A stretch of DNA of 27,327 nucleotides from Nitrosopumilaceae archaeon (GCA_965200155.1 CBDATR010000012.1:1-27327), one strand, 5' to 3'. Positions 1,684-27,327 are shown, counted from the stretch's first letter. The notes: generated by a model not told the origin, from the letters alone. Made by a program: numbers and translations.

Positions 1684-1714
1684 ACCGAACAGTATAATGC
1701 CAGCACGTATTACT

Positions 1715-2245: not shown

Positions 2246-2337
2246 GCAGGGCGACGTTACGCCTCAATAAAAGGCAGGTCATGATGATTCCATTCAGGAT
2301 ATGGGCAGGTGAGCCGGGCGGTTTTCGGTTATGGTCC

Positions 2338-3578: not shown

Positions 3579-4087
3579 TCTGTGAATGGTTGTGCTATTC
3601 TAGGGTTAATGGGTTGACAGGATATCATTCCCGTCCTGATCAATCCCATATTCAGTCTGTATCATCACATTTCTTGCACCATTTCAGTAATAGAGTGTGA
3701 TACCTGTAAACAGGACGAATGTGACTCATGCTACAAATATGGCACTGGCGCCCGTTCTGTGTTACCATCTAATCTCCTTGGAATGGTTACACGCCACTAT
3801 ATTATGTCCCATTCGCGATGTTACATGGCTGAATTTGTAAAATCATATCCTGTAATAATGACTCCTGTAATCCAGATCTCCCCATTTATATTCCCCGTCA
3901 TGAATGAACCTTGTTAGACTGAGTAATAGTCCCTTGTTGAACTTCATCCCATGACTCATTGAATGGTGCACGACCCTGCCCATGACGTACCCAACACCCC
4001 GCTTAAGGAACCGAACATGTGTACATGAAATGAAAATTAGAGTCAACCACATGTCTGACAGGCTCCCGACCTTTTACATATCATTCC

Positions 4088-11236: not shown

Positions 11237-11726
11237 GTTCACGTGATGAACCCTTCCAGGAATGTGTATGCGTTTAGTTGGTAATCATAACCTGACTCAT
11301 ATCCAATCCCTCAAGCAGGAGTGAAAAACAGTAAGGCTGGCGCATATCCTATTCCTACAGAGTACACATAACGGAACTAGAATGTGTATGCGGTCCAATT
11401 GGTTCCAGTAATGGTTCCAAAGAATCATGTGTGCTAAATGGCGGGAGAATTGTTCCTGGATTTGGATGATGCAAGGAGTTCATATGGATGGTTACCGGGG
11501 AGTACAGCCGGTTTGATGACTGAAGAGTACCAGTTGTGTGATACCCGGGTATAGATACCGATCACGCCCGGATCAAAGCCGTTCGTTCAAATTGAGGCCG
11601 GAGCCATTCTGCAGAAGGGATGGAATCATTCATGGACGTGTTCCGGGGATGATTCCCGGCCAGATAAAGTCCACACCGGGCCTTTCTGTAATAGAATGTA
11701 GTTACACCAATCACGTGAACTCATAC
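11231..11726. mobile_element. 496-bp non-autonomous element bounded by IS66-type ends
   Basis: 17-bp perfect inverted repeats GTATGAGTTCACGTGAT...ATCACGTGAACTCATAC; interior not recognisably related to the transposase or the 92-bp MITE; no matching target duplication. Confidence 0.8.
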
Positions 11727-11811
11727 TTCACCTGTGTCTAAATTTACGCACAACTGATCGCGACAGTTAATGTGATTTGTACACAAGATTCCGGAAGACG
11801 TGAACTCATAC
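11727..11811 (-). mobile_element. 92-bp MITE (copy 3), inverted, missing 7 terminal bases
   Basis: Reverse complement of 1016-1107, starting TTCACCTGTGTCTAAA (the GTATGAG is absent) and ending GACGTGAACTCATAC. Confidence 0.92.
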
Positions 11812-11896
11812 CATAAGGATGGATCACCTTGGAAAACGAAATCATATTAGTTGACAAATGAGGGAACTGGGCCTATCACATACCAGCATGTCTTAT

Positions 11897-11928
11897 TAGA
11901 CCGTATGCGTAAAATCACTTCCCCCACC
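11897..11928 (+). repeat. Remnant left end of the IS5/ISL2-like element
   Basis: TAGACCGTATGCGTAAAATCACTTCCCCCACC matches 25920-25951 (TAGACCGTATGCGCAGAATCACTTCTCCCACC) at 29/32. Confidence 0.75.
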
Positions 11929-12164
11929 TTGTATGAAAAAGATCAAGGGACTATTACTCAATAGTAGTGTCCGGGCTGCACAAACATGGGAGACTATTAT
12001 CCATATAGGTCGCTCAAGCAATACTGAATCCGGTTATAATACACTAGTACCATCATTGAATACGTATAATCACGGGAATCTGTGGTGCATTTGATGGCCA
12101 GACAATCCATACAGAACCCAAATAAACATAATTTATATACATTGATTAATATATAATATGCATA

Positions 12165-12329
12165 TTGGAAGCAAGATACTCCGGTGGCTGCATTATGGGG
12201 CAGTATGAATACGACATGCTGACAAAACTGGTAGAGTCAGGAAAGATACGATCAAGAGGCAGGTTCTTCCGTGAGATGATACGCCGACACGGAAAGGCCA
12301 TACTGGAAGGCAGAGAGCCGCCAATCTAG
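12165..12329 (+). CDS. Ribbon-helix-helix (CopG/Arc/MetJ-like) DNA-binding protein, 54 aa
   Basis: TTG start; MEARYSGGCIMGQYEYDMLTKLVESGKIRSRGRFFREMIRRHGKAILEGREPPI. The L..LVESG...SR..F.RE.IR pattern is typical of archaeal RHH proteins; TTTATATA at 12132-12139. Below the ORF track cutoff. Confidence 0.7.
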   Translation: MEARYSGGCIMGQYEYDMLTKLVESGKIRSRGRFFREMIRRHGKAILEGREPPI

Positions 12330-13240
12330 TTTTTTGTATATTTTGTAGGGTGTGTCGCGGAACAACCGGGACATAATGTATTAGAACGAACCCAGGAGCA
12401 GCCGGGCACCTTGTAACCACTCCTCTTTATCTGGTTGATGTGATACTCTGTTATCTTCTTGTTATAGTCCGGGGCGCCCTGGAACAGGTCACTGATGTCT
12501 GGAATATCGATACCTGTATTCAGGTAGTACGCTGCCACAAGGAAGCGGCCTGAATGTGATAAATTCCCGCCTTGAGATATCATATCCAGGCACTTTGTTA
12601 TGCAGGGGGGTGTGTCGCCACTCTTAATGACTTTGTTATACTCACACCATTCTGTAATGTCTGGTGGTACCTCTATGGGCGGCAGTCTTGTCATCTTCTC
12701 GATACGATTCCTAATGTACCGAGTAATGGCATCTCGCATTAATCTGAGGAACTTGTCCGGCTCCAGATGGACAAAGCCCTTGTTCACATGCTGGTTGATT
12801 AGCTTCCATGTATTTCCAAGGCCGACCGCCAATGGCAAATATTGGGAGACATGCAACGTATACAGGCCTTTATCACTGCCTGGTTCTGAACCTAATACTT
12901 CCCGGCATATGGGAGTTATGTCTACATTGCGCTCCTGCATCATGTGGATGGAGTATAGTGCTTCTGTGTATGAGAACCGGCCTATCAGTTTATGGTTATT
13001 CATCCTCCTACATAATATAACGGCCGCCAGGAATGACTCTGTTCCTTCCGGCTCCATGTAGCGGCGGTCTAGAATAATTTCCTCGATTGCTCTATTCTTG
13101 GCCCACCGCTCCCAGTCATGTATTCCCGGATGCATCCCCGCAATAGCCGCCCTTACCCTTTCTACACCCAAGTCGATGTTAATCTCGGTCTTGCCTTTCA
13201 TGTGAATAGCGGATTCCGGCATGAAATGTAGTAATACCAT
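12326..13240 (-). CDS. priL: DNA primase large subunit
   Basis: WKLINQHVNKGFV, PPCI...GGNLSHSGRF, APDYNKKITEYHINQI, YKVPGC...LCPGC..HP: the archaeal PriL Fe-S C-terminal domain signature. Confidence 0.9.
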   Translation of the reverse strand: MVLLHFMPESAIHMKGKTEINIDLGVERVRAAIAGMHPGIHDWERWAKNRAIEEIILDRRYMEPEGTESFLAAVILCRRMNNHKLIGRFSYTEALYSIHMMQERNVDITPICREVLGSEPGSDKGLYTLHVSQYLPLAVGLGNTWKLINQHVNKGFVHLEPDKFLRLMRDAITRYIRNRIEKMTRLPPIEVPPDITEWCEYNKVIKSGDTPPCITKCLDMISQGGNLSHSGRFLVAAYYLNTGIDIPDISDLFQGAPDYNKKITEYHINQIKRSGYKVPGCSWVRSNTLCPGCSATHPTKYTKN

Positions 13241-13265
13241 TCTAAATCATACAAGTCAGGGTTTA

Positions 13266-14198
13266 TCATTCCACGAATATGGTGGACTGGCCTATAGTGA
13301 TATCATCCCCGAATAGAAGAGCGGTATAGACACCCGGCCCGTGCTGCTCTAGTATAGGGGTAATGTCAGATATAATGGAAAAGTCATCCTCCCATTGTAT
13401 TGCCTCTATGAAGGGAATTATTACCAGTTCCTCATGGTATTCCGGCCGCCATGTTATGGTGTCAAATGGTGTCTGGGACGCCGGTGCATCTTGGTCTACG
13501 TCATACGGATCAGGGCACCGTGTCACGTACATCTCTGATTCCATGTAATAGTAACCGTGGGGCGGTATTATAGAGGCCACAATCACCCCATTGTCATAGC
13601 AGTATGTTCTCTCGACCTGCCCGCGGGTCAGGTTGTATGGTAAAGGATCATAGTATAATGAGATGCTGTCTATAACATTCATGGAATGACCGCTCAATGT
13701 TAGAGTGGTACCATTAATGGATGCCTCTGTGAATGTCACGTAACTATACTCAAAGTGTTGGACGACTCTCATGTTATAATCATCATGCGTGATTCCCAGA
13801 TTGACATGAGTGTGGTGCTCGTTTAGTATGTTATCACGGTGTCCTGGGCTGTTCATGAAACCATCCATGATCTCTTCCAAGTCCTGGAATGGTGATACGG
13901 GAACGAACAAGTCATTAATACAGTAATCCAGGCCGGATACGTTCTCGGCGTTGACACCTGTCCCATTATATCGCATGTACGGTTTCATGCCGTCCAGTCC
14001 CCAGTGGGATAAGTAGCAGTATTCCAGCATGTTTTCAGCGTGTTGCTGGGCCGCCATATCATTACCAAGTGAAACTGGCTGTAGTCCGGCCATTTCTCTT
14101 TCATGGTTGATCAATTCCAGCATGTACTGATCAAGTGTTTGTTCCTGGGAATGAGCGGTACCGGCCACTAGTGGTGCTAGAGCCAGTAATAGATTCAT
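13266..14198 (-). CDS. Secreted CAP (SCP/PR-1) domain protein
   Basis: Signal peptide; LELINHERE.AGL.PV, AAQQHAENM, SHWGLDGMKPYMRY, AEN, SPGHRDNIL...VNLGI. Confidence 0.9.
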   Translation of the reverse strand: MNLLLALAPLVAGTAHSQEQTLDQYMLELINHEREMAGLQPVSLGNDMAAQQHAENMLEYCYLSHWGLDGMKPYMRYNGTGVNAENVSGLDYCINDLFVPVSPFQDLEEIMDGFMNSPGHRDNILNEHHTHVNLGITHDDYNMRVVQHFEYSYVTFTEASINGTTLTLSGHSMNVIDSISLYYDPLPYNLTRGQVERTYCYDNGVIVASIIPPHGYYYMESEMYVTRCPDPYDVDQDAPASQTPFDTITWRPEYHEELVIIPFIEAIQWEDDFSIISDITPILEQHGPGVYTALLFGDDITIGQSTIFVE

Positions 14199-14364
14199 GA
14201 TTTTAATTCAGTCATGATGTAATAAAAGGACAGTTCATGTTAAACCATGAAACTGGAGAGACCTGATGGGGGAGAATTCATAGGCAACACTGAGTGATGT
14301 AGATTGTCTCAATACTATCAGGTGTGATAGTTGATGTACGCGATAACGAAATAGTGCACTGCAT

Positions 14365-16017
14365 GTATGAGTTCACGTGTTTTGATCACATAATAAGATA
14401 GAATGCATCCCAGTTTTTTTAATTATAACTGCATTCTGGCAGCAACCTCGTTCATTACAGAAAGGCCCTGAGCCCTCCATGTCTGAACACATGATACGAA
14501 TGTGGACATGCGGCGCATTGCCCTTTCGCCACCCTTTATCTGGCCACTAATCTTGCGGAATACCACTGCGTATCGCAAAGCCTGCTCCGCTGGATTGTTG
14601 GTGGGCTCTACACTGTCATATTCTAAGAATACGAACATGCCGGGTATGGCCTTATTCAATCCTTTTACCTTCTTTTGTAGTTCAGTATCATCAACATCAC
14701 AGTATTGATGCAGAATGGATTCTGCTCCTGTCTCAAATGAGTGTCGTAATTGCGCGGACGGCCCGCAGTGATTCAGGGATTCCCGTGCGCTCCGGAACAA
14801 TCCTTTCAGGTCGTTGTCAAGTTTGATCCGGGCGTCCTGAGCACCGGGATCGATATAGAATCCTGCATGTAATGCCTGGGTATCGCGCAATAAATGCGCC
14901 CAACACAACTGGTGCTTCCCACCGTCATCAAACCGGCGGTACACAACGTACCTGTCCGTTACTATCGCTCCCTGGTAACCGTTCAGGTATTTGTTCACTA
15001 CATTTGAACTCCTACTTTTGTCATATATGGACATCATCCACTCTTCGGCTCGCATCCCCCATACCCAGCCACGCCTACCCGCCAGTGATATACCAGTTTC
15101 GTCCACATGTATGCTGGGTGATTTTATTATATTCTCATGAATTGTTTCCATAAATGATTCGCATGCATCGGCGGCCCTGGCAATTATGTTGTTTACCGCA
15201 CCCACAGATATATTCAGGCCGAAGAGATCCTTCGAAATTACAGGTATGCGTTTTATTGGAATCTTTTCTGCGCGTAATGCAGTGATGGCACCGCATAATT
15301 TAACCCCAAAACTACCACTCTTTGGGACGCCCGCTGCTGGGGCCAGTTGTTTTTTGCCGCACTTGCATGCAGCCATTTCTATCACATGAAGGGCCTCCTC
15401 TATTTTGGCTGGTATTAATTCCGTTATGTGTCGTTGTTTCCAACCAATTTTTGTCATTATATTGCCGCACTCACATATTGGTGTGTACTCAAAGGTGTGA
15501 TGCACTACTCTGCCGGGGTTGTGGGAACGGGAAACCCCCTTGTGTCCCTTTTGAGCGCCAGCCTTTTTGGCTGATTTAGTATTGACTTCTGTATGTTGCT
15601 TATTATCTCCCTGTTTTCGCTTCTTGTACTGGAGGGATTGAAGGGATGGTGGCGTGTGAGCATTCTCATAATATTTAAGTCGCGTTGTGAGTACCGCAAT
15701 TTTCCCCTGTTTTTCTTCTAATTTCTCATTCAATTCATTTACATAATTCCTAATAATTTGGAAATCTTGTGTGAGATTTCGTATTTCTTTTGTGGTGCGG
15801 GACACATATGCTTCCAATACTCTCACACGTTCCTTGTAATGTGCAAGATCTTTCTCGGTAGACGCAAGGGTATCCTGAAGAAGTTTATTTTCCAGTTCCA
15901 ATTCCTTATAGGACCGGCGTCTTCTCATTAGATTCTTATTGCAAATTTGGTATTTAAGTAAAATATTGTCATACCAATCTATATCTTAGTGAATGATCAA
16001 AACACGTGAACTCATAC
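14365..16017 (-). mobile_element. IS66-family insertion sequence, single-ORF (ISBst12-like) type, 1653 bp
   Basis: 24-bp perfect TIRs GTATGAGTTCACGTGTTTTGATCA; contains an intact transposase; left flank CACTGCAT. Confidence 0.95.
14423..15928 (-). CDS. IS66-family DDE transposase (TnpC-like)
   Basis: N-terminal coiled coil, PPS motif, Zn finger (CEC...CKC), VDETG, TDRY, QLCWAHLLR, PTNNPAEQALR. Confidence 0.95.
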   Translation of the reverse strand: MRRRRSYKELELENKLLQDTLASTEKDLAHYKERVRVLEAYVSRTTKEIRNLTQDFQIIRNYVNELNEKLEEKQGKIAVLTTRLKYYENAHTPPSLQSLQYKKRKQGDNKQHTEVNTKSAKKAGAQKGHKGVSRSHNPGRVVHHTFEYTPICECGNIMTKIGWKQRHITELIPAKIEEALHVIEMAACKCGKKQLAPAAGVPKSGSFGVKLCGAITALRAEKIPIKRIPVISKDLFGLNISVGAVNNIIARAADACESFMETIHENIIKSPSIHVDETGISLAGRRGWVWGMRAEEWMMSIYDKSRSSNVVNKYLNGYQGAIVTDRYVVYRRFDDGGKHQLCWAHLLRDTQALHAGFYIDPGAQDARIKLDNDLKGLFRSARESLNHCGPSAQLRHSFETGAESILHQYCDVDDTELQKKVKGLNKAIPGMFVFLEYDSVEPTNNPAEQALRYAVVFRKISGQIKGGERAMRRMSTFVSCVQTWRAQGLSVMNEVAARMQL

Positions 16018-16495
16018 GCCTTTTTGGCTGATTTTGTACTGGCTTCTGTCTGTTGCTTATTATCTCCCTGTTTCCGCTTCTGCTCCTCCTGTTTTCGCTT
16101 CTTGTACTGGAGGGATTGAAGGGATGGTGGCGAGTGAGCATTCTCATAATATTTAAGTCGCGTTGTGAGTACCGCAATTTTCCTGTCTTTTTCTACTAAT
16201 TCCTCTATCAATTCACTTACATAATTTCTAATAATTTGGAAATCTTGTGTGAGATTTCGTATTTCTTTTATGGTGTGTGACGTATGTGCTTCCAATACTC
16301 TCACACGTTCCTTGTAATGTGCAAGATCTTTCTCGGTAGACGCAAGGGTATCCTGAAGAAGTTTATTTTCCAGTTCCAATTCCTTATAGGACCGGCGCCT
16401 TCTCATTAGATTCTTATTGCAAATTTGGTATTTAAGTAAAATATTGTCATACCAATCTATATCTTAGTAAATGATCAAAACACGTGAACTCATAC
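16018..16495 (-). mobile_element. Truncated second copy of the IS66 element (one end plus the 5' part of the transposase)
   Basis: Near-identical to about 15560-16017; cut at GCCTTTTTGG directly by the end of the first copy; right flank CACCGCAT matches left flank CACTGCAT at 7/8. Confidence 0.93.
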
Positions 16496-16549
16496 CACCG
16501 CATTAGTGTCATTCCATGACTATGCCTTTTACCATGGAATGAGACTAGC

Positions 16550-16759: not shown

Positions 16760-16899
16760 GTGGAACATTATAGCATAACTGGAAAGAGACATGATGGGGA
16801 AGAATTCATAGGCAACACTGTAGATTGTCTCAATACTCAGGTGTGATGGTTGATGTACGCGATAACGAAATAGTGTACCGCATTAGTGTCATTCCATGA
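16760..16899 (+). pseudogene. Degraded paralog of the small-protein family; also a duplicate of the IS66 empty site
   Basis: Fragments EHYSITGKRHDGEEFIGNT and VMVDVRDNEIVYRISVIP in different frames; DNA is highly similar to about 14250-14364 joined to 16504-16533. Confidence 0.6.
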
Positions 16900-16935
16900 C
16901 TATGCCTTTTACCTCTGTAACAAACTAGTTCTAAC

Positions 16936-17121
16936 ATGGCATATAACATAGAGGGGAGAAGTAAGTCTGGTTACTGGTACTATTATGGATCAGAAAATAA
17001 CAAAGACGATGCAATTGGTACCGCAAAGATGATTTCGGTAGAAAAACCGGGCATGCTTGTCCACGTTACAGATACAGAGACAGGAGAAGTAGTATTTGAT
17101 ATCACAGTTCAAGTGTCTTGA
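16936..17121 (+). CDS. Small hypothetical protein, 61 aa
   Basis: ATG start preceded by GCCTTTTAC at -29..-24; paralogous to 16550-16729. Confidence 0.7.
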   Translation: MAYNIEGRSKSGYWYYYGSENNKDDAIGTAKMISVEKPGMLVHVTDTETGEVVFDITVQVS

Positions 17122-18242
17122 TCATTTTGTAAACCACTGGCGCATCAGCCCAAACTAACCATGTTATCATGATCAAGAACGGCGTTGTTTATGCGCAAGT
17201 CCCGTCAGGATGATACTGAAGTATACATATGAGAACAGAGGTAAAAATGGTTCAGTCCCATGAAGAGGACCATGGGTATATTTCATTTGATTTTGATCCG
17301 TTAGATGGTGCTGATGAGAGAATCCATAAGGCGTTTGCATTATTCTCTAACTTCATATTTGGTATGTTATTATATTGGAGCCGTGGTAAGAGGCAGCAAG
17401 CAGGCCGTTCAATGATGCAGGTCAAAGCCTAAAACAGATACCATGTCCACTATTCCTGGAATGGAATCTGGATGTTGAAGAATCATGGAATAGAATAGCC
17501 AAGGAACAATTATTGCCGGCTAAACACGCGCCATGATTGATGCCGTTTGTAACATGTTTGACATTGAGTATGATACTGATTCCCTTACCAATATGTGGTG
17601 TGAGGAACCAAGTTGACGGTGGCTTATATGTATACTTATAATATATTACTCTGGAGAATAGTTTATGTTTCCCACCAAATGTCCCACACACCCACAAATT
17701 TATTGTTAAAGGTCAGCCTGTGAATCATTAATTCCATCATGGTAGACATCCGGCGCTCACCTATACCAACATGATGGAATATAGTAACATCCGCCTCTTT
17801 GTACCGCCGTCTCTGGAATGGGCTTTGCGTGTAATACCAACAACCGTGGTTTTATTTACCCTTTACACGCCTCACGTAACATGAACCACGTGGATTATAA
17901 CTAGTTTCATGGAACTGCCGCCTGATCGGATTGCCCAATTCGTAATGACCTCTGAATCATTCCTAACATGTTGCAGTCATACTAGAATAGCGCGTTCACC
18001 ATTTGTCCATATGATTCCCTTGAACCATTTTATCATCCGGGAATTTCTGCATGATCTCAATCGTGACTTGCCGGGACCATTTTATCATGGAATATCTAGG
18101 GATCCTTTGGAAGTGTACTTTAGTTGGGCGCGGCCACCAAGCCAGGGCCGCTGATGCATGTGAATCATACGTGCCGGGTGTTCTTGGTATGGTAACTGGA
18201 CTTGATCAGCCGGGGGTTCTTGGCCACCATTAACAAATGATT

Positions 18243-18742
18243 CTAGTATTGGAGTATTCCATGGGCATTTGCCCTCAGCCACTTCTTGGTCTCCTCATAG
18301 TTCGGGCAATGCATGTGAACTAGTGTCCAAAATTGTTATGGTGTACAATATGACACAACTCATGAATGATGGTAGATTCTATAACCTCCTTGGGGGCCCT
18401 TAACAATCCTCATAGCGTATTTCATTCGCCCAGTTACAGTCACCCCAGCGGCCTCCACCGAATCTTTTCACGGAAACCTGTGATGGTTTTATACCTATCA
18501 CTCTAGCCAATTCATTAGTCCGTTCAATGACCCATTGAACTGAATGAGGTTTGAGACTGGAAACTGCCTCTTTTGGTCGTATAGTGTCTGCAATCCACTG
18601 GGCGTTCTTGATCACAAATATCATCCGGTGGGATACCGGGAAACGTTCTCACGACAAACTTGCCGCTCTTATCCATCAATGTCCTCGCAAACATGACTCT
18701 CTGCTTGCTTCGTAATGGTCTTGTTCCCCACCTTGAGTACAA
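18243..18742 (-). pseudogene. YgjP-like (DUF45, HExxH metallo-hydrolase) pseudogene
   Basis: Multi-frame fragments: LARVIGIKPSQVSVKR..RWGDC, LLRAPKEVIESTIIHELCHIVHHN (HELCH at 18350-18364), FWTLVHMHCPNYEETKKWL. Confidence 0.8.
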
Positions 18743-18998
18743 CTTCTGTCCTATTCATACTATTATGATAGCGGTATTAGTGCATATTCCTTTGTATTAA
18801 CTTGTATCAGAACAGCCATGACAAAACATGGTAAAAAATTCCATCATGGAACGAGGGAATTCTGTGCTTCAAGTTTGGCATACAAGCTTGTGAGTTCTTT
18901 AGCACTACAAGGGACTGTTATTCAAACAGCCCAACGAGGGACTCAATAGTCCTAACAAGATGAGAACCATTGAGTAACTCAGACATGTAATTCCCAAA

Positions 18999-19758
18999 TT
19001 ATGGACAGTCTTTTGGAAGTGGACTTTGGTTGGGCGCGGCCGCCATCTCCAAATCAAGCCGCCTCAACCTCAATGATACCGTTGAGATATTGGCAGCATC
19101 AGCTATCATTTTCTGTGTTATGGAATGATCATGATAACAACACATCTTGTAGAGTGCAGCGGCCGCCAGTGTGGTCGGGTCCTTGCCGGTCATTCTGGGA
19201 GTGATATGACGCAAGAATAGAATGGTACTCTGGCGGACTTTTTCCGGTATGTCGCACTCCTGTGCAATGAATCCCACAAATGATGCCGGATCCGGCGGCG
19301 GCACTACAATCTCCAAATCACGTAATAATACACGGTAAATGTGATTGGCTTGCCCTGACTTGACACCGGCCGCATGACATATTACTTTGGCCGTCCTTGG
19401 AATCCCCTCTAACCGGCACGCCAATATAACAACGGCGGCAGCCCGGGCTACATTACTCCAGCCTAAATGTAAATTATGACTGACTACCATATGACTTGGC
19501 ACGGCGTCTCCCCATATCAGGAATGCCGCACTTTGTACAAATGTCATCAATTTTGCCATGTATCTTGTGGTTGGGACTCTTGATTAGTCTATCCAAGTTG
19601 TACAGTCTCCATCTCCCGCTGAAACTGTTCCGGCGCACGCCATACTTCCAGGAACCACTATACGTGGGGATAGTCTCATGGACCATGCCACATTTATCAC
19701 AGACATACTCAGCCTCACACTCTATCACCATTCCACCGCATGTACACTCTAGCACCAC
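18999..19758 (-). pseudogene. tfb: Transcription initiation factor IIB (TFB)-like gene split by one frameshift near 19480-19500
   Basis: Frame 1: Zn ribbon CTCGG...EYVCDKCGMVHE and helix IDDICTKCGIP...A. Frame 2: AAAVVILACRLEGIPRT, GKDPTTLAAAALY, ITQKMIADAANISTVSLRLR (cyclin folds and HTH). Confidence 0.85.
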
Positions 19759-21380
19759 ACATTCCAACCTCTCACAAATTTGGTTACCCCGCAATCCTGC
19801 CTGTTCACGCCCGACTGCTCTATCACTCCATGATTGACTGGAGTAGATGTACCACACCATATCACTCCAGTTCGCTCGACCGGTGATGGAATGGCAAGGC
19901 CGCTCTTCCATGCAGAGGGGCCATCTGACTCTACCATGTATTGAATTGTCCCGCCAGGGTGATCTAGAGTAGCTGTAATAGTATCATGGTATAATGATTG
20001 CGCCAGTGGCTCCAGAAGGGTCCCGTTGGACGTGTAAATGAGATTCCCCATCATGGCAGGCATCCTTAAAGTGAGAATAGCGGGCTCACCGGTTGCTATT
20101 ACTCGTATAGTGGAGCCATCCCTATTCAATGATACGTCCAGGTTGGACTCAAATGTAGTCACGTATGGTAATATTAATGGCGGGCGGCGCGTCTCCATGA
20201 CATCAAAGTCAACCGTCACCGTGCTACCGGGCGGACATACTGTTGGCGCTACCATATGGGGATCACCAGATACAAGACTCATACGAATGGAACCATGAAA
20301 GCCGGAACCATACACTAATGCTGTGGGTCCATCCCAGGCCCGTAAAATCAAATCCTCCAGGCAGTCGCCGGTACAAGTGTCATTAGGAATCATATGTATT
20401 ATAATGTCGCCATCATTATGCGGTATGGTAGCCGAGAGAACGCCGCCGGTAACTGTATAAGTAGTCTCAATGGGGTGACCATTCTGCCAGAAGGTATACT
20501 TGGAGCCAAAGGCAGGCATTACCACATCTAGAATGCCCGGCTCTATTGAGTGGCCCCGTATGATGGCCTTTCCTGGAGTAGTAGAGTATGATTCCACGCG
20601 GTATGTCTGGGAAGACCATGACAGGCCGGATAGCGTCCCCGCCTGCATGATGTTATCTGGGCCTGAAATATCAATGACACTCTCATCCTGCATTCCCAGT
20701 AACATGTCCAAGTGGGAACGATCAGAGTAGAACCACATGGATGCATCCACGAATGGATCATAACGGTCCGCCTTGAATATACCCGCCAGGGGAATAGGCT
20801 GTGTTATGTCAATTAAGAATGCGGCGCTGCCCTCGCCGGAATATTCCACCATATACAAGTCATTATTCCCTTCTAGAACGATTACATCCCCCCACATCTC
20901 GCCCACTTTGACGATTCCGGGGCCGTCCATAAAGTCATTAATTGCAAGAATAGTATCCTCCAATGAGCCCACAAACATTCTTGACTGATCAATGAAGGGA
21001 GCCTTTAGCGTACCATCATATAGTAAGATGTATGTTTGTGTGGGTATACCCGGTGGTATGGAATCCTCCAACAACTCCAAGTCAATAATAGGGTCGCCGG
21101 TCATTATGAAACGTTCCGGTATGTAATTTGGATAATCCATGTCTTGGAGGAACCCGGCCATAATGGTCATTTGTGCCTGTACAATCCAGTATGGCTTGTT
21201 GTAATGGAGAACAGAAGTCAGGAAATCAAGGCTGGCATCATAGCATAGTTGTCTAGTGGTATCACAAATGGTATAGACATACGTGTCATGAGTGGCACCG
21301 GTCCCCGGCTCCCAGTATAGGGCATGCGCCATTCCGGGAATAATCACTATTACCATGATTATGGCCGCTAGACCTTTCAT
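19749..21380 (-). CDS. Secreted mosaic protein with repeated beta-rich domains and a degenerate, interrupted thermonuclease (SNase)-like domain
   Basis: Signal peptide; two similar G.L...MPA....(F/Y)..NG...E...AT..H..G.I segments; CTGDC...DGPT...SIRMSLV...CPPGSTVTVDFD...R.GVIWCG...C..F..W recalls thaumarchaeal SNase-like proteins (from memory, not searched). Confidence 0.6.
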   Translation of the reverse strand: MKGLAAIIMVIVIIPGMAHALYWEPGTGATHDTYVYTICDTTRQLCYDASLDFLTSVLHYNKPYWIVQAQMTIMAGFLQDMDYPNYIPERFIMTGDPIIDLELLEDSIPPGIPTQTYILLYDGTLKAPFIDQSRMFVGSLEDTILAINDFMDGPGIVKVGEMWGDVIVLEGNNDLYMVEYSGEGSAAFLIDITQPIPLAGIFKADRYDPFVDASMWFYSDRSHLDMLLGMQDESVIDISGPDNIMQAGTLSGLSWSSQTYRVESYSTTPGKAIIRGHSIEPGILDVVMPAFGSKYTFWQNGHPIETTYTVTGGVLSATIPHNDGDIIIHMIPNDTCTGDCLEDLILRAWDGPTALVYGSGFHGSIRMSLVSGDPHMVAPTVCPPGSTVTVDFDVMETRRPPLILPYVTTFESNLDVSLNRDGSTIRVIATGEPAILTLRMPAMMGNLIYTSNGTLLEPLAQSLYHDTITATLDHPGGTIQYMVESDGPSAWKSGLAIPSPVERTGVIWCGTSTPVNHGVIEQSGVNRQDCGVTKFVRGWNVWC

Positions 21381-21962
21381 GCCGGTATAGTGGTTCTATG
21401 ATGGGTTAATGGGTTATACTCTACCGTACCATTTAGTCCTCTCCAGTATTGAGGCTGTCTTGTACCCCAAACTTTAACGACATAGTCGCTTCATCTCCAG
21501 CTTGTTACTCATTTAGAAGTCGGGTATTTTGGTATCCGGCCACTGATCCCCGATCACCATACTTGGATGAGGGGTGGTCTATTACCGGCTTCTCGTCCGG
21601 CCCAAAGCCATGATACCAGAGTTGTGTCCACCTTATATGACAACCGTTCCGGCAGGAATAATTCTCGTCCTTGTAATGCCAGACTCTGGCTTCCTTACAT
21701 TTGAGGCATTAGAAAGTATGGCTTCATAAAGTCTGTCTAAACCGGCCATTCATTCAATGATGGTATAATCCCTGAACAGGGCCGGAATAATACCCTATGA
21801 GCATTCCCGTTATTTCTGGTACAGGTTTCCAGTCATGTTATAGTGTCATTGAATCTTCTATGGCAAATCCGGCACAGGCGCGTCACTGAATAACTCATGG
21901 GCGTTACCATCATTCTCAGGACAGATTCTGTCAAGGGTGGTCATGTTAGTCCCATTAGAAAG

Positions 21963-22157
21963 TCATGGAATACGCATGGGTGGATTCCTGATTCTATACC
22001 TGCCATGACAAGTCCCCCTGGGAACGCGCCTCAATGACATGCCACAACAGGGGCACTGTATGTGTGTCTTGGGGAACTTTTTCTTACAAGTCCCGCACCA
22101 GTTATGTCTGGTGTAATCTAACTGGCCCTGGATACAATAATTCCTGCACGAGAACAT
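21963..22157 (-). CDS. Small Zn-finger protein
   Basis: CRNYC, WCGTC, CPCCG.SLR..PR; resembles a small conserved thaumarchaeal Cys-rich family; promoter motif at -28..-23. Confidence 0.7.
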   Translation of the reverse strand: MFSCRNYCIQGQLDYTRHNWCGTCKKKFPKTHIQCPCCGMSLRRVPRGTCHGRYRIRNPPMRIP

Positions 22158-22165
22158 CTAGAGTT

Positions 22166-22195
22166 AGATTATAACTTGAATAAAAGGGCGGCCAT
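22166..22195 (-). promoter_or_regulatory. Putative promoter, 30-bp direct repeat copy 1
   Basis: AGATTATAACTTGAATAAAAGGGCGGCCAT (coding strand TGGCCGCCC-TTTTAT); 29/30 identical to 24802-24831. Confidence 0.75.
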
Positions 22196-22280
22196 GCTAT
22201 TCCTTTCCACAATTGCAATGGAATCCCATATGGTAGAGACACTAGCATTAGTAATCGTTCTTTTCATCAATGGTGAATGA

Positions 22281-24092
22281 TTACACCTTCCTGTATATGC
22301 CGTGCCTGTCCAATATCACCCGGCCAGCATTATGCAGGCGGTTTATCACCTTTTCAATATCTGGTAAACTCCGTTTCATATCATGTGCTACCTCCTCGGC
22401 GGTGTGGCCATCCTCGCTATTCTCTATCAAATCAAGAACATGCTCGGCGATATTCTTCTTACCCGCGACTACCCTTGCATAGTCCGTCTTGCCTGTCTCT
22501 GATGTCAATAATACTTTCTGTATCATATTCTCTATCAAGTAGACTGCCCTGTTTGCATCATCGACTGTTATCTCTTTCCGCCGGTATACCTTGGCCATGG
22601 CGCCGGCTAGACGATGTGCTGCCTCCACCTGGCGGGGCGTAGCTTTGATATCCTGCGACCTCCAGTTCTGACGGGCGCTTACAAAATATTTCTTTATGAT
22701 CTTGGCGGCCTCCACTGTCATGACAGGATCCAGGTCACGTACTGTTCTGATATACGCTGTCACGTCTTCCGGTGACAAGCGGTTCTCCTTCTTTGTAGAG
22801 AATAATATGGCATTGGCTATGTCAGCATCATGTTCCTCGTTGGGCTGATCTTTCAAGTTGAAGATCAAGTCAAACCGGGATATCAGACTGTCCGGCAAGT
22901 CGATATTTTCCTTGATATCCCTGGTCACATTCCAGCTACTATCCTTGGGGTTTGCCGCGGCCAGTATTGATACGCGAGCGTGCATTGTGACCAACGTTCC
23001 CAATTTTGCTACCGAAACCGTCTGCTGTTCCATCACTTCATGAAGTCCGGCCCTGTCTGTCTTTTCCGTTTTGTCAAACTCATCCATACATAGAACGCCG
23101 CCATCAGTGAGTACGGCGGCTCCGGCCTCCAGATACATCACCCCGTCCTTGTCCCGATTCATGCCCGCGGTAAGTCCCGCGGAAGTGGCCCCCCTGCCAG
23201 AGGTGTAACGTCCAAGTGGCGCCAAATTTGCAGCCTCCTTGAGTAGCACTGATTTGGCGATTCCCGGGTCCCCCACCAGTAGTATGTTTATGCTGGAGCG
23301 GCCTTTCATGGATTCCGGCCCGCCCACCATCAATAGAATAATGGCCTCCTTCACTACTGTGTGGCCGTGTATTTTAGTGGCGAATGAGTCCAGTAATGCT
23401 TCCATGGGATCACCATCTATTTCTGGTGGGATGGTCTCCTCAACTTTTTCCTGTAATGAGACGTTATTCACCAGGAATTCATAGTCGTATCCCGCCTTTG
23501 TTGTTTTCAGCGTCATGACACCATTCATTATACACCGATCACCGGGATTGACCACCTGTATTAGTGTGCCATCAAGCCTGCAGGGAAGCATACGGGGAGC
23601 CCGGGTCCCGGCTATCTCCTCGAATTGCTCGGCTAACAAGATATGCTGGGTGTCCACGAATTTGGAGTCTGCCTCACTCCTCTCGAAAAAGCCGCGGCCG
23701 CATGGGCACTTGGTAGGCTTTTGGCCTGGATCAGTTGTCTTGATGTTGTTACAGACGCTACATCGCCATCCCACATCAAGGGCCAATGGTATGGGCTGAC
23801 TTATCCTGGATATCATGCCCCGGAACTGTACCCACTGCTTGTTCTGACTTACGGCGGCCTGGGCGACGGAGATGGCTGCATCACTATTCGTCTCTACTCT
23901 AATGGACCAGTCATTGTGGGCCTTTGCTAATTCGCGATTATGCCGGGCCACTTTTTCCTTGTATACACCAGATAACTTGTCTAAGTGTGATAATGGATCG
24001 TCCTGGAATGTTTCCGGGAGTGTGTCATATCTAACGGCCACATATCGATGCTCCAGCGTTCCCATTATATCGTCCGGTATTACATTCATCAT
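22281..24092 (-). CDS. mcm: MCM replicative helicase
   Basis: Zn finger CSVC...CPC, PGDR, Walker A GDPGIAKS, GLTA, EAGA.VL.DGG, Walker B CMDEFDK, AAANP, arginine finger SRFD, TPRQ.EA, C-terminal wHTH. Confidence 0.97.
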   Translation of the reverse strand: MMNVIPDDIMGTLEHRYVAVRYDTLPETFQDDPLSHLDKLSGVYKEKVARHNRELAKAHNDWSIRVETNSDAAISVAQAAVSQNKQWVQFRGMISRISQPIPLALDVGWRCSVCNNIKTTDPGQKPTKCPCGRGFFERSEADSKFVDTQHILLAEQFEEIAGTRAPRMLPCRLDGTLIQVVNPGDRCIMNGVMTLKTTKAGYDYEFLVNNVSLQEKVEETIPPEIDGDPMEALLDSFATKIHGHTVVKEAIILLMVGGPESMKGRSSINILLVGDPGIAKSVLLKEAANLAPLGRYTSGRGATSAGLTAGMNRDKDGVMYLEAGAAVLTDGGVLCMDEFDKTEKTDRAGLHEVMEQQTVSVAKLGTLVTMHARVSILAAANPKDSSWNVTRDIKENIDLPDSLISRFDLIFNLKDQPNEEHDADIANAILFSTKKENRLSPEDVTAYIRTVRDLDPVMTVEAAKIIKKYFVSARQNWRSQDIKATPRQVEAAHRLAGAMAKVYRRKEITVDDANRAVYLIENMIQKVLLTSETGKTDYARVVAGKKNIAEHVLDLIENSEDGHTAEEVAHDMKRSLPDIEKVINRLHNAGRVILDRHGIYRKV

Positions 24093-24142
24093 TCATCAAG
24101 TCCTGGAACAATCCTGATTACCGATAAAAGGACGGACATGAC

Positions 24143-24793
24143 TCATAATAGCATGGCAGACTGATGGTACGTTATTTCATCGCCATACTTGATGGTGGCA
24201 GGCTCCCTTGCAGATAAATGGATGGTTGCCATCATACTAGCTATCCTGGGAACGCACTCCATCAAATCATTCAATAATAGCCTAGAGTACCCCCTGCCCG
24301 TAACCTGGGCCGGTACCATAATATCACAACTATTCCCTTCCGGCCCGTGGAAGAGAGCAGTTCCCTGCCGTATCGATATTACAATGACTGATGTCCCTGT
24401 GGCGGCGACATCAGCTAATGCATTGTAAAAGACATTGGTTGGTAATGTTATGGTGCCGCCCTCACCGGTTTTTGGTGCATCAAGGAATGGAACAGGTTCC
24501 TGTCGGCGCAGCTTGTACCGGATTTGTCCATCATCCATGACTAGTGACTCATCACTTAGTGAAAGAGTGATGTCATTTTGGAGTCGTCGCGCCATCTTTA
24601 CCATTTGTGTGGTATCCACGCTGGCATCACTGCCGGTACTATCTGTCATGTCCGGCGTGTACTGTAACCGCCGGATATGGTTATAGTCCATGGCAGAGAA
24701 CGAGCCCCGTTCCGGGCTGATTGTGACATCGCCCAGCTGGGATAGTGTACCGGCTACATATCTTAGCACTCCATGACTGGCTGTGAATTTCAC
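24143..24793 (-). CDS. pcn: Divergent PCNA-like sliding clamp
   Basis: From GTG at 24793: MKFTA...SAMDYNHI (compare PCNA AMDPSHV), F..AL.DV, G.S..LL..L, P..IKY...ITY..SA. It is directly upstream of mcm, and the start is supported by promoter spacing. Confidence 0.7.
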   Translation of the reverse strand: MKFTASHGVLRYVAGTLSQLGDVTISPERGSFSAMDYNHIRRLQYTPDMTDSTGSDASVDTTQMVKMARRLQNDITLSLSDESLVMDDGQIRYKLRRQEPVPFLDAPKTGEGGTITLPTNVFYNALADVAATGTSVIVISIRQGTALFHGPEGNSCDIMVPAQVTGRGYSRLLLNDLMECVPRIASMMATIHLSAREPATIKYGDEITYHQSAMLL

Positions 24794-24801
24794 GGGACAC
24801 C

Positions 24802-24831
24802 AGATTATCACTTGAATAAAAGGGCGGCCAT
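24802..24831 (-). promoter_or_regulatory. Putative promoter, 30-bp direct repeat copy 2
   Basis: AGATTATCACTTGAATAAAAGGGCGGCCAT; TTTTAT lies at -28..-23 from GTG 24793. Confidence 0.75.
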
Positions 24832-25078
24832 ACCTTGTTACAGGTTCTATGCCGGAATCATGGTTAGCAATTCCCCTTGTAAAGATACACGCGCATTGGC
24901 CAGCTCAAAATGCAACGTGATGGCGAATCATGTATCCAGGAGTGATGCATTTGAACGGGGCGGGAAGCCATTCATGCACTCTCCATGTCAGATAATCCGT
25001 GAATCATTCATCACTCTTGGGTGATCAATTGATCGCATGGTTATTGACATATCAGTCGTGTATTCGGGATTATTCCAG

Positions 25079-25882
25079 CTAAATTTCCCCGTTTTCCAAA
25101 TCCACATAGTAATCTTCCATGTACTCCTCAACGGTTTGATTGTTAGATTTCAGATAGCCGGTCTTTCTGTAAGCGTCATAATAGCCCGGTGGGGCGCCAT
25201 CCCATTGCTCCCGGCAGAATACGCAGTGACTATACACAGGATGTATGGAAACCATATCAGGATGTGCGCAAAAGTATATGCAAGCCTCGTGCTCACCGCC
25301 CTTGGGACATTTCCCCACTCTTACACGCCCGGAATTACAAGACTCGCTTACCTGATCAAGGAATAGCTGTTTACCTGCTGGTGGGGACGTTGCATTCATG
25401 GATTTCAATTCTCTTTCTGTGGCACGGCGTGGCTCGGTCCATGGATCATCCCAGTATACATTCTTTGCCCTGAACCACGGGTGCATGCCCATTTCAGTCC
25501 AGCATCTCAGGCACGTACAGGAGACTTTCTCCGGGGTGACGGTTACCGTGTATGAGTGCATTCTGTAATGTTTCTTGTGTAATGGTGGTATATCCCTTGG
25601 ATCCAGTGGATTATTCTTGGAGCGTTTATAGGGTAGGTTGACGTAATAGTCAGGATTCTCACAGTTCTCCTCATAGTTGCTACACTTGCCGTAATCAAAC
25701 CGGCCAACAAATACGTCGGGCCGTATACGGTCCATGTAAAAGAATATCTTTTTGTCCAGTTCATTGAATGGGTGCAACGTAGGGTAGAATGTCCAGGCGT
25801 ACAATGGGGTCTTCGTTAACGGCATTTTACTATCTTCCATGACCAAGTCCGGTTTTGACCATTTCTTGTGGTATACTCCCAT
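25079..25882 (-). CDS. Hypothetical Cys/His-rich protein
   Basis: 267-aa ORF with an AT-rich TATA about 25-35 nt upstream; CTCLRC and CPKGGEH...CVFC motifs (same CxxGGxH type as 3213-3578). Confidence 0.7.
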   Translation of the reverse strand: MGVYHKKWSKPDLVMEDSKMPLTKTPLYAWTFYPTLHPFNELDKKIFFYMDRIRPDVFVGRFDYGKCSNYEENCENPDYYVNLPYKRSKNNPLDPRDIPPLHKKHYRMHSYTVTVTPEKVSCTCLRCWTEMGMHPWFRAKNVYWDDPWTEPRRATERELKSMNATSPPAGKQLFLDQVSESCNSGRVRVGKCPKGGEHEACIYFCAHPDMVSIHPVYSHCVFCREQWDGAPPGYYDAYRKTGYLKSNNQTVEEYMEDYYVDLENGEI

Positions 25883-25919
25883 TACTATAATGATATTCAG
25901 GATACCTTATAAAATATAA

Positions 25920-27327
25920 TAGACCGTATGCGCAGAATCACTTCTCCCACCCTGCACGTCTAAACCAAGTTGTTAGATACGAACAATTGACCTAGTATCA
26001 TGGGTTTTCCCACAGACTCGTGTGAAACAGAAAAGTTAAGACCTAATTTTGTAATACCAGGTATGCTAAAAGCAGAAGAACTCACCAGGGAGCAGTTAGT
26101 CACAGAGTACTACCGGCTACGCACCGAGTCTGAGGCCGAAGTAACAAACCTGCGTGGCAAAAATGACAGTCTGCACGCCAAACTTGAAGCTCAAACAAAG
26201 AATGCCCTCGTTTCAAATCTTGATGACATCATAGAACGCAAGGATCAGCTTCATTCCCTGACCGGATGCACCCCGGAAGAGTTCAAATGGATACTAACCA
26301 GATTCACAGAATACGTAGAGTCCCTGGAAGGCGATGATGCACGGCGATTCTTAGAACTTACAAATGATCGCGGGCACGTGAACAAATTTCCGGTCAGGCA
26401 TGTACTCTTAGTTACACTGATACGCCTGCGCTGCAATACAAAGCAGGAGCTGCTGGCAGCAATACTCAAGATAAACCAGTCAAACATATGCCGTTACATC
26501 CAGTTTACAAAGCAGGGACTGATCAAGATACTCCCAACGGCCGATACCGTTGCAAAAGCAATATCACAAATCAAGTCAGCATCGGACTTTAAGGAAATTG
26601 TTCCCGGTCGAGCCGGAGGGGAGATAAAGACTGACGGGACACATGTACGCGTACAACGTCCTGAAAAAAATCAGGAGGCAATGTACTCTGGTAAACAAAA
26701 AACCCACACGTATAACGTACAGATAACATCAAACAAGAAAAGACTGATAATTCACGTAAGTGGAGTATATGAGGGAAAAAGACACGATTATGGTATATTC
26801 AAGAATGATATTCCCCTCGGTGGCAAATGGGGCAAGTCCCTAAAAGAATCAACCACGCTGCCATCTGAGAAGATAACAGTAATAGCAGATGCAGGATACC
26901 AGGGTATGAAAGACTTCCTACCCGGCGCAAAGGTCATGATTCCATACAGGGGTAGGGAATCACTCACTAAAACTGAAAGGAAATACAACCAATATGTATC
27001 AAAAAGGCGCATATTAATCGAGCATGTAATTCGAATGCTAAAGGTATATCGTAGATTAAGTCAGGTATATGATGGCAGTCGTGAGGAATTCCGGGATCTA
27101 CTCGTAGTATCCGGGTTGCATAATTTACACATTATGCACAAGCATACCAGGTACAAGAAATTCTTGAAAAATATCTGTCCATAATTTCCGTGTTATTATA
27201 ATTCGAATATTACTCATCAGAAAATCCACTAAATTAATGGGTTTTGTGGTAACCATTTAGCTCACTCATGATATACGTCATCAAGATCCGGTCACCCCAC
27301 TACACGACATTTGTAATCACGGCATAC
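25920..27327 (+). mobile_element. IS5-family (ISL2/Harbinger-like) insertion sequence; right end probably cut by the window
   Basis: Left end defined by similarity to 11897-11928; the window ends in GCATAC, the reverse complement of GTATGC in the left end (weak evidence). Confidence 0.7.
26000..27184 (+). CDS. DDE transposase (DDE_Tnp_4/HARBI1-like with HTH)
   Basis: LTG..PEEF, HTH QELLA..LKINQSNICR, DGTHVRVQRP, YSGKQKTH, HD, ADAGYQG, KRRILIEHVI..LK.YR. Confidence 0.93.
   Translation: MGFPTDSCETEKLRPNFVIPGMLKAEELTREQLVTEYYRLRTESEAEVTNLRGKNDSLHAKLEAQTKNALVSNLDDIIERKDQLHSLTGCTPEEFKWILTRFTEYVESLEGDDARRFLELTNDRGHVNKFPVRHVLLVTLIRLRCNTKQELLAAILKINQSNICRYIQFTKQGLIKILPTADTVAKAISQIKSASDFKEIVPGRAGGEIKTDGTHVRVQRPEKNQEAMYSGKQKTHTYNVQITSNKKRLIIHVSGVYEGKRHDYGIFKNDIPLGGKWGKSLKESTTLPSEKITVIADAGYQGMKDFLPGAKVMIPYRGRESLTKTERKYNQYVSKRRILIEHVIRMLKVYRRLSQVYDGSREEFRDLLVVSGLHNLHIMHKHTRYKKFLKNICP

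Follow-up and report, generated by a model that had tools for sequence, protein, structure and literature searches.

The stretch of DNA considered here (hereafter the window) is 27,327 bases long and constitutes the entire contig C12 of a Nitrosopumilaceae metagenome-assembled genome (MAG; G000) of 2.38 Mb, which comprises 51 contigs and is 87.6% complete. The sequencing runs that contain window DNA are labelled as sponge metagenome. The contig carries part of a mobile element with a gene (tfb) for a divergent transcription factor B (TFB), a TFIIB homologue, and with two recurring promoter-like motifs, class 1 and class 2, in which C-rich bases stand directly 5' of a T/A-rich hexamer. A preliminary description of the window had proposed that the element uses its own TFB, in the manner of a sigma factor, to read a TFIIB recognition element (BRE) that is not that of the host. 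We scanned the 24 open reading frames (ORFs) of the window with Pfam; the genes and motif sites on which the proposal turns are as follows (hexamer positions are distances from the hexamer to the start codon).

18999-19758, minus strand: tfb pseudogene of a short subfamily that we call type A (Pfam TFIIB repeats, reading frames, alignment to 16 intact homologues and PDB alignment of the helix-turn-helix, HTH)
18999-19559, minus strand: TFIIB repeats of this gene (Pfam)
19474-19500, minus strand: zone of the tfb frameshift (homology places the frame change between ..RRRAKS and HMVVSH.., at about 19489-19494)
19749-21380, minus strand: gene whose 543-aa product has a hydrophobic, signal-like N-terminal segment and could be placed in no known family; the gene ends in a stop that overlaps the GTG start of tfb by 10 nt
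21963-22157, minus strand: Cys-rich 64-aa ORF with a class 1 promoter motif upstream
22281-24092, minus strand: mcm helicase gene of the element (Pfam MCM, MCM_OB and MCM_lid)
24143-24793, minus strand: 216-aa ORF with a GTG start and no known family, a conserved upstream neighbour of mcm
2267-2283, minus strand: class 1 site CATGACCTGCCTTTTAT before the gene for a 176-aa protein (1715-2245), TTTTAT at -27; this site is outside the segment 18999-24831 of the preliminary description
14222-14239, minus strand: class 1 site CATGAACTGTCCTTTTAT before the CAP gene (start 14198), TTTTAT at -29
16515-16532, plus strand: class 1 variant CATGACTATGCCTTTTAC before a 59-aa ORF (start 16550), CC-TTTTAC at -23
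16895-16912, plus strand: class 1 variant, a duplicate of CATGACTATGCCTTTTAC, before a 61-aa ORF (start 16936), CC-TTTTAC at -29
22180-22196, minus strand: class 1 site CATGGCCGCCCTTTTAT before the 64-aa ORF (start 22157), TTTTAT at -28
24124-24140, minus strand: class 1 site CATGTCCGTCCTTTTAT before mcm (start 24092), TTTTAT at -37
24816-24832, minus strand: class 1 site TATGGCCGCCCTTTTAT before the 216-aa gene (GTG 24793), TTTTAT at -28
2974-2985, minus strand: class 2 core AACCCATTAACC before a 62-aa ORF (ATG 2951 or 2965)
3604-3615, minus strand: class 2 core AACCCATTAACC, 26 nt before ATG 3578 of a 121-aa ORF
21404-21415, minus strand: class 2 core AACCCATTAACC, 24 nt before ATG 21380 of the operon formed by the 543-aa gene and tfb

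Class 1 consists of (C/T)ATG, then 7-8 bases of the form N-CC-NN-CC and then TTTTA(T/C/A), and is longer than had been noted. Its C/G-rich seven-base stretch (often after CATG) occupies the position of the A-rich BRE of the host, and the box lies at -23 to -37 from the start codon. Class 2 is AACCC-(A/T)TTAAC-(C/G), that is, the core AACCCATTAAC followed by C or G, with its box at -29 to -32; many class 2 sites also have an AT-rich, CATTAT-like box a few bases before the ATG. The AT-rich box of an archaeal core promoter is present in both classes, and where a purine-rich or A-rich BRE would be expected there is N-CC-NN-CC (class 1) or AACCC (class 2). The CC-TATA sites listed earlier all exist, at -23 to -37 from starts, and recur beyond chance. 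However, because the sites upstream of 22157 and 24793 have about 27 nearly identical bases in common, and those upstream of 16550 and 16936 share their upstream flank, these represent two duplications and not four independent sites; five sites keep unrelated flanks. Two members of the earlier list do not stand as promoters: the TTTTAC at 4072 is just 16 nt before a GTG (4088), or 79 nt before an ATG (4151), and no ORF of at least 50 aa begins at promoter distance from the ACCC-ATTAA at 1137.

Whether these motifs are unusual depends on what promoters of the host look like. Gene starts were taken from a crude ORF caller (codon-usage score, first ATG), and this applies to all promoter-position counts in called genes. 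When the regions upstream of 1,406 de-duplicated genes are compared, TATA-like hexamers are most frequent at -30 to -28 relative to the ATG, and 41 of 80 occurrences of TTTTAT and 49 of 76 of TTTATA fall within -34 to -24 (expected 17%). A TATA hexamer at a fixed distance is therefore the ordinary, leaderless-type architecture of the host and is unremarkable by itself. An expectation-maximization motif search of host upstream regions returned an A-rich BRE (A at 0.57, 0.53, 0.39 and 0.43) followed by W-T-W-W-A-T in about 26% of them. CC directly before the TATA was found in only 11 of 212 host genes with a TATA-like hexamer at -33 to -26, and 4 of these 11 are on contigs C22, C35 or C43, which are considered below. 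Thus, the claim that the motif is a non-host BRE is borne out by the A-rich host BRE, by the rarity of CC before host TATA boxes and by the confinement of class 2 described next.

Both motifs are real, promoter-positioned and specific to a small set of contigs. The 11-mer AACCCATTAAC occurs 16 times in G000 (C12, 3; C22, 5; C35, 2; C43, 4; C9, 1; C40, 1), and at 10 of the 15 testable sites an ATG-initiated ORF of at least 50 aa begins 22-27 nt downstream; among random positions, scored with an 18-32 nt window, the figure was 1499 of 20000 (7.5%). Class 2 is promoter-positioned before nine called genes, all on C12, C22, C35 and C43, and before none on other contigs. For class 1, [CT]ATG-N5/6-CCTTTTA[TC], an extended motif that was defined after the sites had been seen, occurs 14 times on the two strands of G000 (C12, 7; the C22 copies, 3; C35, 1; C9, 3) against a rough expectation of about 2 genome-wide. 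The looser CCNNCCTTTTA[ATC] occurs 21 times, with 16 occurrences on C12, C22, C35 and C43 and two on the two largest core contigs (1.05 Mb); 13 are promoter-positioned. Moreover, CCTTTTA[TC] is followed 17-31 nt downstream by a start codon and an ORF of at least 50 aa in seven of nine cases in the window, compared with nine of 69 on core contigs.

Class 1 precedes mcm, the 216-aa gene, the CAP gene, the family of the 176-aa gene (homologues of whose product are encoded near type A tfb in the genomes G135 and G100, introduced below) and a type ISP gene of C22. Class 2 precedes genes for VirB4-like proteins (694 aa on C22, 615 aa on C43), a C22 operon that ends in a TadC-like gene, and the 543-aa/tfb operon. 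(As a separate observation, the end of a DDE_Tnp_4 insertion sequence (IS) at window positions 27232-27243, minus strand, of which there are about 30 other copies in the genome, bears AACCCATTAATT, which has 10 of the 12 class 2 core bases; this may be chance or an outward-facing promoter.)

The window is a fragment of a larger family of elements. Segments 1-4031, 11810-14364 and 16777-18839 have counterparts of 97-99.9% identity on C22, and C9 holds a third, diverged copy of the shared segments. C22 encodes a TrwB/TraG-like (VirD4-like) ATPase of 741 aa, a T2SSF/TadC-like protein, type ISP restriction genes and ribonucleotide reductase, and C43 encodes a VirB4/TraG-like ATPase (AAA_10/TraG P-loop, 615 aa). 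From the shared segments together with the conjugation-type genes of C22 and C43, it follows that the window belongs to a conjugative or cryptic element family, multi-copy in G000, of which the window alone is a replication and regulation fragment (MCM, a PriL-like protein and tfb). No VirB4/TrbE-like or VirD4/TraG-like ATPase was found by Pfam among the 24 window ORFs, and no integrase family turned up in this general scan, which was not an aimed test for integrases or att sites. Both ends of C12 are repeats or IS copies; since both insertion sequences of the window have dozens of 90-99% identical copies on large core contigs, C12 can be assigned to the G000 genome.

The tfb gene itself is broken. 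One frame, from GTG 19758 to the stop at 19474-19476, encodes a zinc ribbon (ECTCGG...CDKCG) and a short linker, and a second frame encodes most of two cyclin repeats and the HTH ISTVSLRLRR, ending at the stop at 18999-19001. The cyclin-like repeats match PF00382 in two stretches (E = 1.6e-16), both of which were also found in the genome search. Type A relatives number 21 proteins at E ≤1e-10 (49-63% identity, 189-262 aa); the 16 intact homologues are 235-262 aa long (about 245 aa for the subfamily), keep the C-x-C...C-x-x-C of the ribbon and begin MVLxCxCGG, which is why we place the window start at GTG 19758. (The type A alignment used for the locus search omitted the N-terminal fragment.) Contigs of four runs from two studies cross the frameshift site with no differences and no gaps, namely DNA contigs of runs X1 (from another study) and X3 and RNA-library contigs of runs X6 and X7; the DNA contigs of X1 and X3 span 18962-21543 without a difference or gap. 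The frameshift, which had been noted earlier, is therefore genuine and the gene has no intact reading frame. Programmed frameshifting at the break was considered and rejected, there being no slippery run at the site and the 16 homologues being single-frame.

The HTH of the TFB-like gene had been read as ISTVSLRLR and described as divergent. The frame reading yields the same helix, and the subfamily motif A-x-VSTVS[LM]RLRR, which departs from the canonical VTEVT[IV]RNRY, is near-invariant, so the difference is a trait of the subfamily and not a result of decay. The divergence is nonetheless smaller than had been implied. The TFB of structures 1ais and 1d3u aligns over residues 72-239 of the intact type A homologue P0005, and when the type A HTH is aligned with VTEVTVRNRY (P. 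woesei TFB, 1ais/1d3u) and VADVTIRQS (human TFIIB), the aligned Val and Arg, which we take to be base-contacting residues in human TFIIB, are retained.

Homologues of the 543-aa protein (58-60% identity) are encoded directly before type A tfb in G135 and G100, so that the arrangement is found in all three genomes; besides the window, the coupling is recorded at positions 8082-10453 of locus L052 and about 8085-10441 of locus L053. The idea that the 543-aa protein is an anti-TFB, by analogy with anti-sigma factors, was set aside in view of its signal-like N-terminus; no other hydrophobic anchor was seen by eye.

The MAG contains ten TFB loci: three canonical; three with mild HTH variants; the broken type A gene of C12; two of a second subtype, type B (intact on C35, truncated on C43); and a third divergent gene, on C35 (10578-11402), with VSAASVRTRA. 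The six host genes have intact and partly varied HTHs (for example ITEVTIRKNY, VSDVTIRNGV and VTDVTVRSRC). Genes for TATA-binding protein (TBP) also occur in element regions. In G000 one is on C43 (85445-85942, minus strand), beside the truncated type B tfb; G135 has four on its contig C1 (2443866-2444345, 2443177-2443686, 2343297-2343812 and 2387096-2387611) and G100 has two on its C1 (1630870-1631373 and 1746894-1747394). The C43 TBP and the G135 TBP at 2443866 have Val for Thr in both 'VCTGA' stretches, the Thr of which presumably contacts the middle of the TATA box. A class 1 promoter, tATGaCCCGCCTTTTAAgggagtgat, with 26 shared bases, stands before both the C43 TBP gene and the third C35 tfb.

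We next consider the other genomes of the family, for which the motif tallies include the unpublished genomes G077, G092 and G093, none of which carries a conclusion by itself. In G000 the exact 12-mer AACCCATTAACC is found 14 times; the count in the 150 other family genomes is 0-2 per genome (nine have any), which is the level of a reversed-pattern control. The 11-mer AACCCATTAAC occurs 16 times in G000, five times each in G100, G135 and G060, four times in G018 and 0-3 times in the rest. By these 12-mer and 11-mer counts, motif clusters are absent from the 150 same-family genomes. When the intact type B TFB of C35 was used as a query against the 150 genomes, the only full-length relatives were three in G135 (44-46% identity) and one in G100 (39%), and a type A search of all species-representative genomes led to the same two chromosomes. 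A scan of metagenomes for further type A tfb loci gave one weak, unrelated match and a scan of viruses gave none. (A composite class 2 pattern gave at least 116 single, chance-like matches in viral contigs and was not used.)

G135 is of the same genus as G000 and has a G+C content of about 61% in five control stretches and about 65% in its element regions, compared with 47% for the window host. Despite this very different composition, both motif classes are conserved at promoter distance in G135. Each of its five AACCCATTAAC sites has a TFB or TBP gene of element type no more than about 25 kb away; distances to genes are given because one of the stretches had been picked via a motif hit. Nine of 11 SSCCTTTTATRG sites fall within 2.334-2.447 Mb. 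In 221 kb of element DNA, 17 of 35 TTTTAT hexamers follow CC, as against none of 25 in control DNA (100 kb, placed arbitrarily; P = 1.7e-5, Fisher test), and CCNNCCTTTTA[ATC] occurs 16 times in the element DNA and not in the control. At promoter distance are 14 of 17 CCTTTTAT sites and four of the five 11-mer sites. (A permissive listing of promoters was too noisy in control DNA of G135, and simple counts were used instead.) The ORFs behind four of the five class 2 sites encode 827-1010 aa and are similar in size to the 817- and 900-aa class 2 genes of C43. The MCM homologue of G135 (51% identity) is encoded beside a homologue of the 222-aa gene.

Two observations on these sites stand by themselves. 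First, a protein family of 817-1010 aa without known domains consistently has class 2 promoters upstream of its genes (C43 75171-83657; G135 C1 near 1026017, 2392581, 2403076 and 2421402). Second, the class 1 box of G135 has a conserved downstream extension, TTTTATGGAACGG, at most sites, which the window sites do not have, and many G135 class 1 sites show CCAC where the window shows CATG.

Individual orthologous genes keep a box as well. The promoter of the 543-aa/tfb operon is AACCCATTAACC in G000, AACCCTTTTAC in G135 and AACCTATTTAC in G100, and the G135 homologue of the 216-aa gene has CCTTTTAAGGGG. Since orthologous operons keep the box across classes, class 1 and class 2 look like the ends of one graded family with CC(C) directly 5' of a T/A-rich hexamer. 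The same data bear on the idea that the recurrence reflects shared ancestry only, the upstream regions having been copied with their genes by duplication or recombination without any special recognition. Copying of this kind clearly occurs: C12 and C22 share segments of 99-100% identity, two pairs of class 1 sites in the window are duplications, and the promoters of the C35 tfb and the C43 TBP gene share their 26 bases. However, no fewer than five of the window's class 1 sites lie between unrelated flanks and before unrelated genes, the fixed spacing persists in G135 where orthologous proteins are 40-60% identical and flanks cannot be aligned, and orthologous operons retain the box while switching class. 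Ancestry alone is thus strongly disfavoured, and we consider it very improbable.

These observations suggest how the element may be transcribed. Element genes would carry core promoters in the leaderless geometry of the host but in a non-host sequence code, and the element family would encode its own promoter-recognition set, made up of three or more divergent TFB subtypes together with divergent TBPs. Such factors would direct the host RNA polymerase to promoters of both classes, giving a programme that is orthogonal and probably hierarchical, with class 1 driving the element TBP gene, one TFB gene, mcm and small genes, and class 2 driving the VirB4-like and pilus or secretion operons together with the 543-aa/tfb operon. 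Given that the type A tfb of C12 is dead, the readers would act in trans (the intact type B tfb of C35 and the TBP of C43), or else the C12 copy is in decay. We put the probability that class 1 and class 2 are the core promoters of the element family and are read by its own TBP and TFB variants at about one half. The motif code, its position, its confinement to the elements, its conservation between genomes, the TFB and TBP gene content and the frameshift are shown by the sequences; the activity of the predicted promoters, and the pairing of a factor, if any, with either class, are inferred.

Several findings weigh against this reading. The window tfb is broken, and the MAG, which is 87.6% complete, yielded no further type A copy. 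Because this pseudogene is the only type A copy found, the element cannot use 'its own' copy, as had been proposed; what stands of that proposal is that in G135 and G100 the motifs accompany TFB and TBP genes, and it may be the element family, rather than the broken C12 gene, that supplies the readers. The motif also occurs where no such gene was detected. C22 has five class 2 sites and no tfb on the contig, and in G018 (same genus, 210 contigs) short contigs bear three class-2-type promoters, with no type A or type B tfb or 543-aa gene detected. Relatives with the motif and without any tfb had been named as evidence against the idea; G018 may be such a case, and G135 and G100 have both. The same description had looked to intact homologues for co-variation of HTH and motif. 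Intact type A and type B genes do exist in the motif-bearing G135 and G100, but all three motif-bearing genomes with these TFBs have both subtypes and both classes, so that they yield neither an assignment of subtype to class nor a case of co-variation.

The integrative and conjugative elements (ICEs) of G065, G083 and G125 (same genus, found via their VirB4-like protein) likewise gave no clear alternative motif. They have no type A or type B tfb within 60 kb, and very divergent TFB-like ORFs only in G083 and G125. An 8-mer enrichment upstream of ORFs recovered class 2 in the positive control, C22, and only G+C-rich noise in the G+C-rich ICE regions, and the sequences upstream of virB4 are heterogeneous (CCGCC-TTAAAA in G065, AACCCTAAAAC in G100). 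In addition, a crude count of CC-TTTTAT shows no enrichment on C22, C35 and C43 (9 of 129) over core contigs (69 of 961), and the designation of these three as element contigs was itself partly prompted by the motif.

Some of these points would be accommodated if the host TBP and one of the six host TFB paralogues read the motifs, with the C-rich flank and CATG being the site of an element-encoded regulator, either repressor or activator, or the design of a strong promoter, and with the element TFB and TBP serving otherwise or not at all here. Six host TFBs with intact and partly varied HTHs are available, the promoter geometry is that of the host, the motifs are kept in a region that is present in RNA libraries even though the window tfb is dead, G018 and C22 bear the motif without a detected element tfb, and the 11-12 invariant bases of class 2 resemble an operator more than a degenerate BRE and TATA box. 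Nevertheless, core host genes use neither class, so that no host paralogue has an evident regulon with this code; the conserved bases sit exactly at the BRE and TATA positions; the motifs travel with element TFB and TBP genes in G135 and G100; and the TBP gene and one tfb of the element themselves have class 1. We regard a host reader as unlikely, although it is the alternative that we take most seriously.

The structure of the element TFBs raises a different concern. In comparison with host TFBs, the B-reader and linker between the ribbon and the first cyclin repeat is shorter by about 40 residues in type A and by about 15 in type B. Element TFBs score 100-134 bits against an NCBIfam TFIIB cut-off of 384, and the match of the window tfb to PRK00423 (100.6 bits) covers profile positions 122-303 only, that is, the cyclin core. 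Such proteins may not support initiation, which weakens the case for element-encoded readers. They might instead bind variant BRE and TATA sequences together with TBP, fail to open the promoter and act as repressors or gatekeepers until induction. The missing residues, the limited profile match and the presence of the region in RNA libraries of a genome whose type A gene is broken are all compatible with such a role. On the other hand, the zinc ribbon, which recruits RNA polymerase, is kept in all 16 intact type A homologues, and P. furiosus TFB2 reportedly supports transcription without a conserved B-finger. We consider a gatekeeper role improbable.

The RNA libraries exist as contigs only, from which transcription starts cannot be read. 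The deepest RNA-library stretch, 24102-25871, includes a class 1 gene, with DNA carry-over possible; coming from a genome with a broken type A tfb and intact motifs, it belongs with the findings unfavourable to element-encoded readers. Neither RNA run covers 23560-24031. Contigs of the RNA libraries cross the class 2 promoter up to 21543, by read-through or DNA carry-over, and those that end at 25868-25871, 11-14 nt inside a 267-aa ORF, have ends that are not readable as transcription start sites. (The gene for the 267-aa protein, at 25079-25882 on the minus strand and within the deepest stretch, has a host-type promoter, TTTTATAA, with an A/T-rich upstream region.)

The remaining Pfam-assigned features of the window are as follows.

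4088-7801, plus strand: Eco57I/MmeI-like methylase-endonuclease, 1237 aa
8009-11236, plus strand: PLD-nuclease/SNF2 helicase, 1075 aa
12326-13240, minus strand: PriL-like protein
13266-14198, minus strand: CAP-domain protein
14423-15928, minus strand: IS66-family transposase
26000-27184, plus strand: DDE_Tnp_4 transposase

The methylase-endonuclease and the PLD/SNF2 helicase make up a restriction/defence insertion (4031-11810) that is missing from the otherwise 99-100% identical C22 copy. The gene at 13266-14198 (minus strand), which has a class 1 promoter upstream, encodes a protein with a CAP/PR-1 (cysteine-rich secretory protein) domain and is thus an example of such a gene in the mobile DNA of a sponge-associated archaeon. 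Insertion sequences abound in the genome: the IS66-family element (14362-16497) and the DDE_Tnp_4 element (25912-27327) are each present throughout the MAG in dozens of copies, full or partial, at 88-99% identity. Within the IS66 unit the 5' part occurs in tandem, the start region being found again at 15969-16406 behind an identical upstream sequence. A 257-base repeat at 21471-21727 is also present on C43 (91% identity); contig depth over it is about twofold in all four runs, and variant contigs end at its borders.

That thaumarchaeal conjugative elements encode a TFB is already published: Krupovic et al. 2019 (PMC6563490) report a TFIIB homologue in every thaumarchaeal ICE known at the time, in most cases with the gene before parB, and refer to earlier observations of TFIIB close to type IV secretion genes in archaea. 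Like those ICEs, the element described here carries a thaumarchaeal TFB gene, and relatives of the window element have genes for VirB4-like, VirD4/TraG-like and TadC-like proteins, MCM and restriction-modification. The main text of that paper, as far as it was consulted, makes no mention of a promoter, TATA box or TBP and places tfb before parB, whereas here the type A tfb follows the gene for a 543-aa secreted protein, and three TFB subtypes, element TBPs and a two-class promoter code are found. In haloarchaea, specific TFBs choose promoters via BRE and TATA (Lu et al. 2008, PMC2396416). The likeness is that alternative general factors are proposed to select promoters through BRE and TATA, sigma-factor style; as far as these sources go, the haloarchaeal case concerns stress regulons of chromosomes and megaplasmids with experimental binding data, whereas here the factors and promoters are those of a mobile element family, the BRE is C/G-rich and the system is proposed from sequence. 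Promoter choice directed by TFB and TBP paralogues in haloarchaea was reportedly also described by Facciotti et al. in 2007.

Bacterial phages and plasmids encode sigma factors, for example T4 gp55 and SPO1 gp28, and thereby an element-borne promoter-recognition subunit. By analogy, the present element would bring a promoter-recognition subunit and private promoters to the host polymerase, possibly as a cascade, although the protein family and the domain of life are different. The upstream TFIIB recognition element of eukaryotes, BREu, is SSRCGCC, and class 1 resembles it as a G/C-rich heptamer directly 5' of the TATA box that ends in CC (GGGCGCC occurs in G135, and GGCCGCC one base upstream of a TTTTAT in the window). 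The consensus here (N-CC-NN-CC) is looser, however, the HTH of the element TFB is not TFIIB-like, and the resemblance may be chance. In the literature searched, neither element TBPs nor a promoter code cognate to the TFBs of archaeal elements was found.

How archaeal mobile elements take over or insulate transcription is little understood; element TFBs have been catalogued, and the literature searched does not describe a cognate promoter. The promoters proposed here can be named base by base, are conserved over hosts of 47% and 61-65% G+C, and travel with TFB and TBP variants, and the sigma-like hypothesis is therefore directly testable. In its widest form, put forward tentatively, conjugative or cryptic elements of sponge-associated ammonia-oxidising archaea may carry a complete orthogonal kit of several TFBs and TBPs with a two-class code (a CC-NN-CC BRE that ends like BREu, and AACCC-WTTAAC) and run a transcription cascade of their own on the host polymerase. 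If this is false, the motifs still mark a regulon of the mobile DNA of an uncultured symbiont. If it is true, the elements would offer natural examples of re-coded BRE and TATA recognition and a marker motif for such elements in metagenomes, a natural matched set of TFB-BRE and TBP-TATA variants for the study of how specificity is encoded, and the first archaeal counterpart of the sigma-factor programmes of phages and plasmids.

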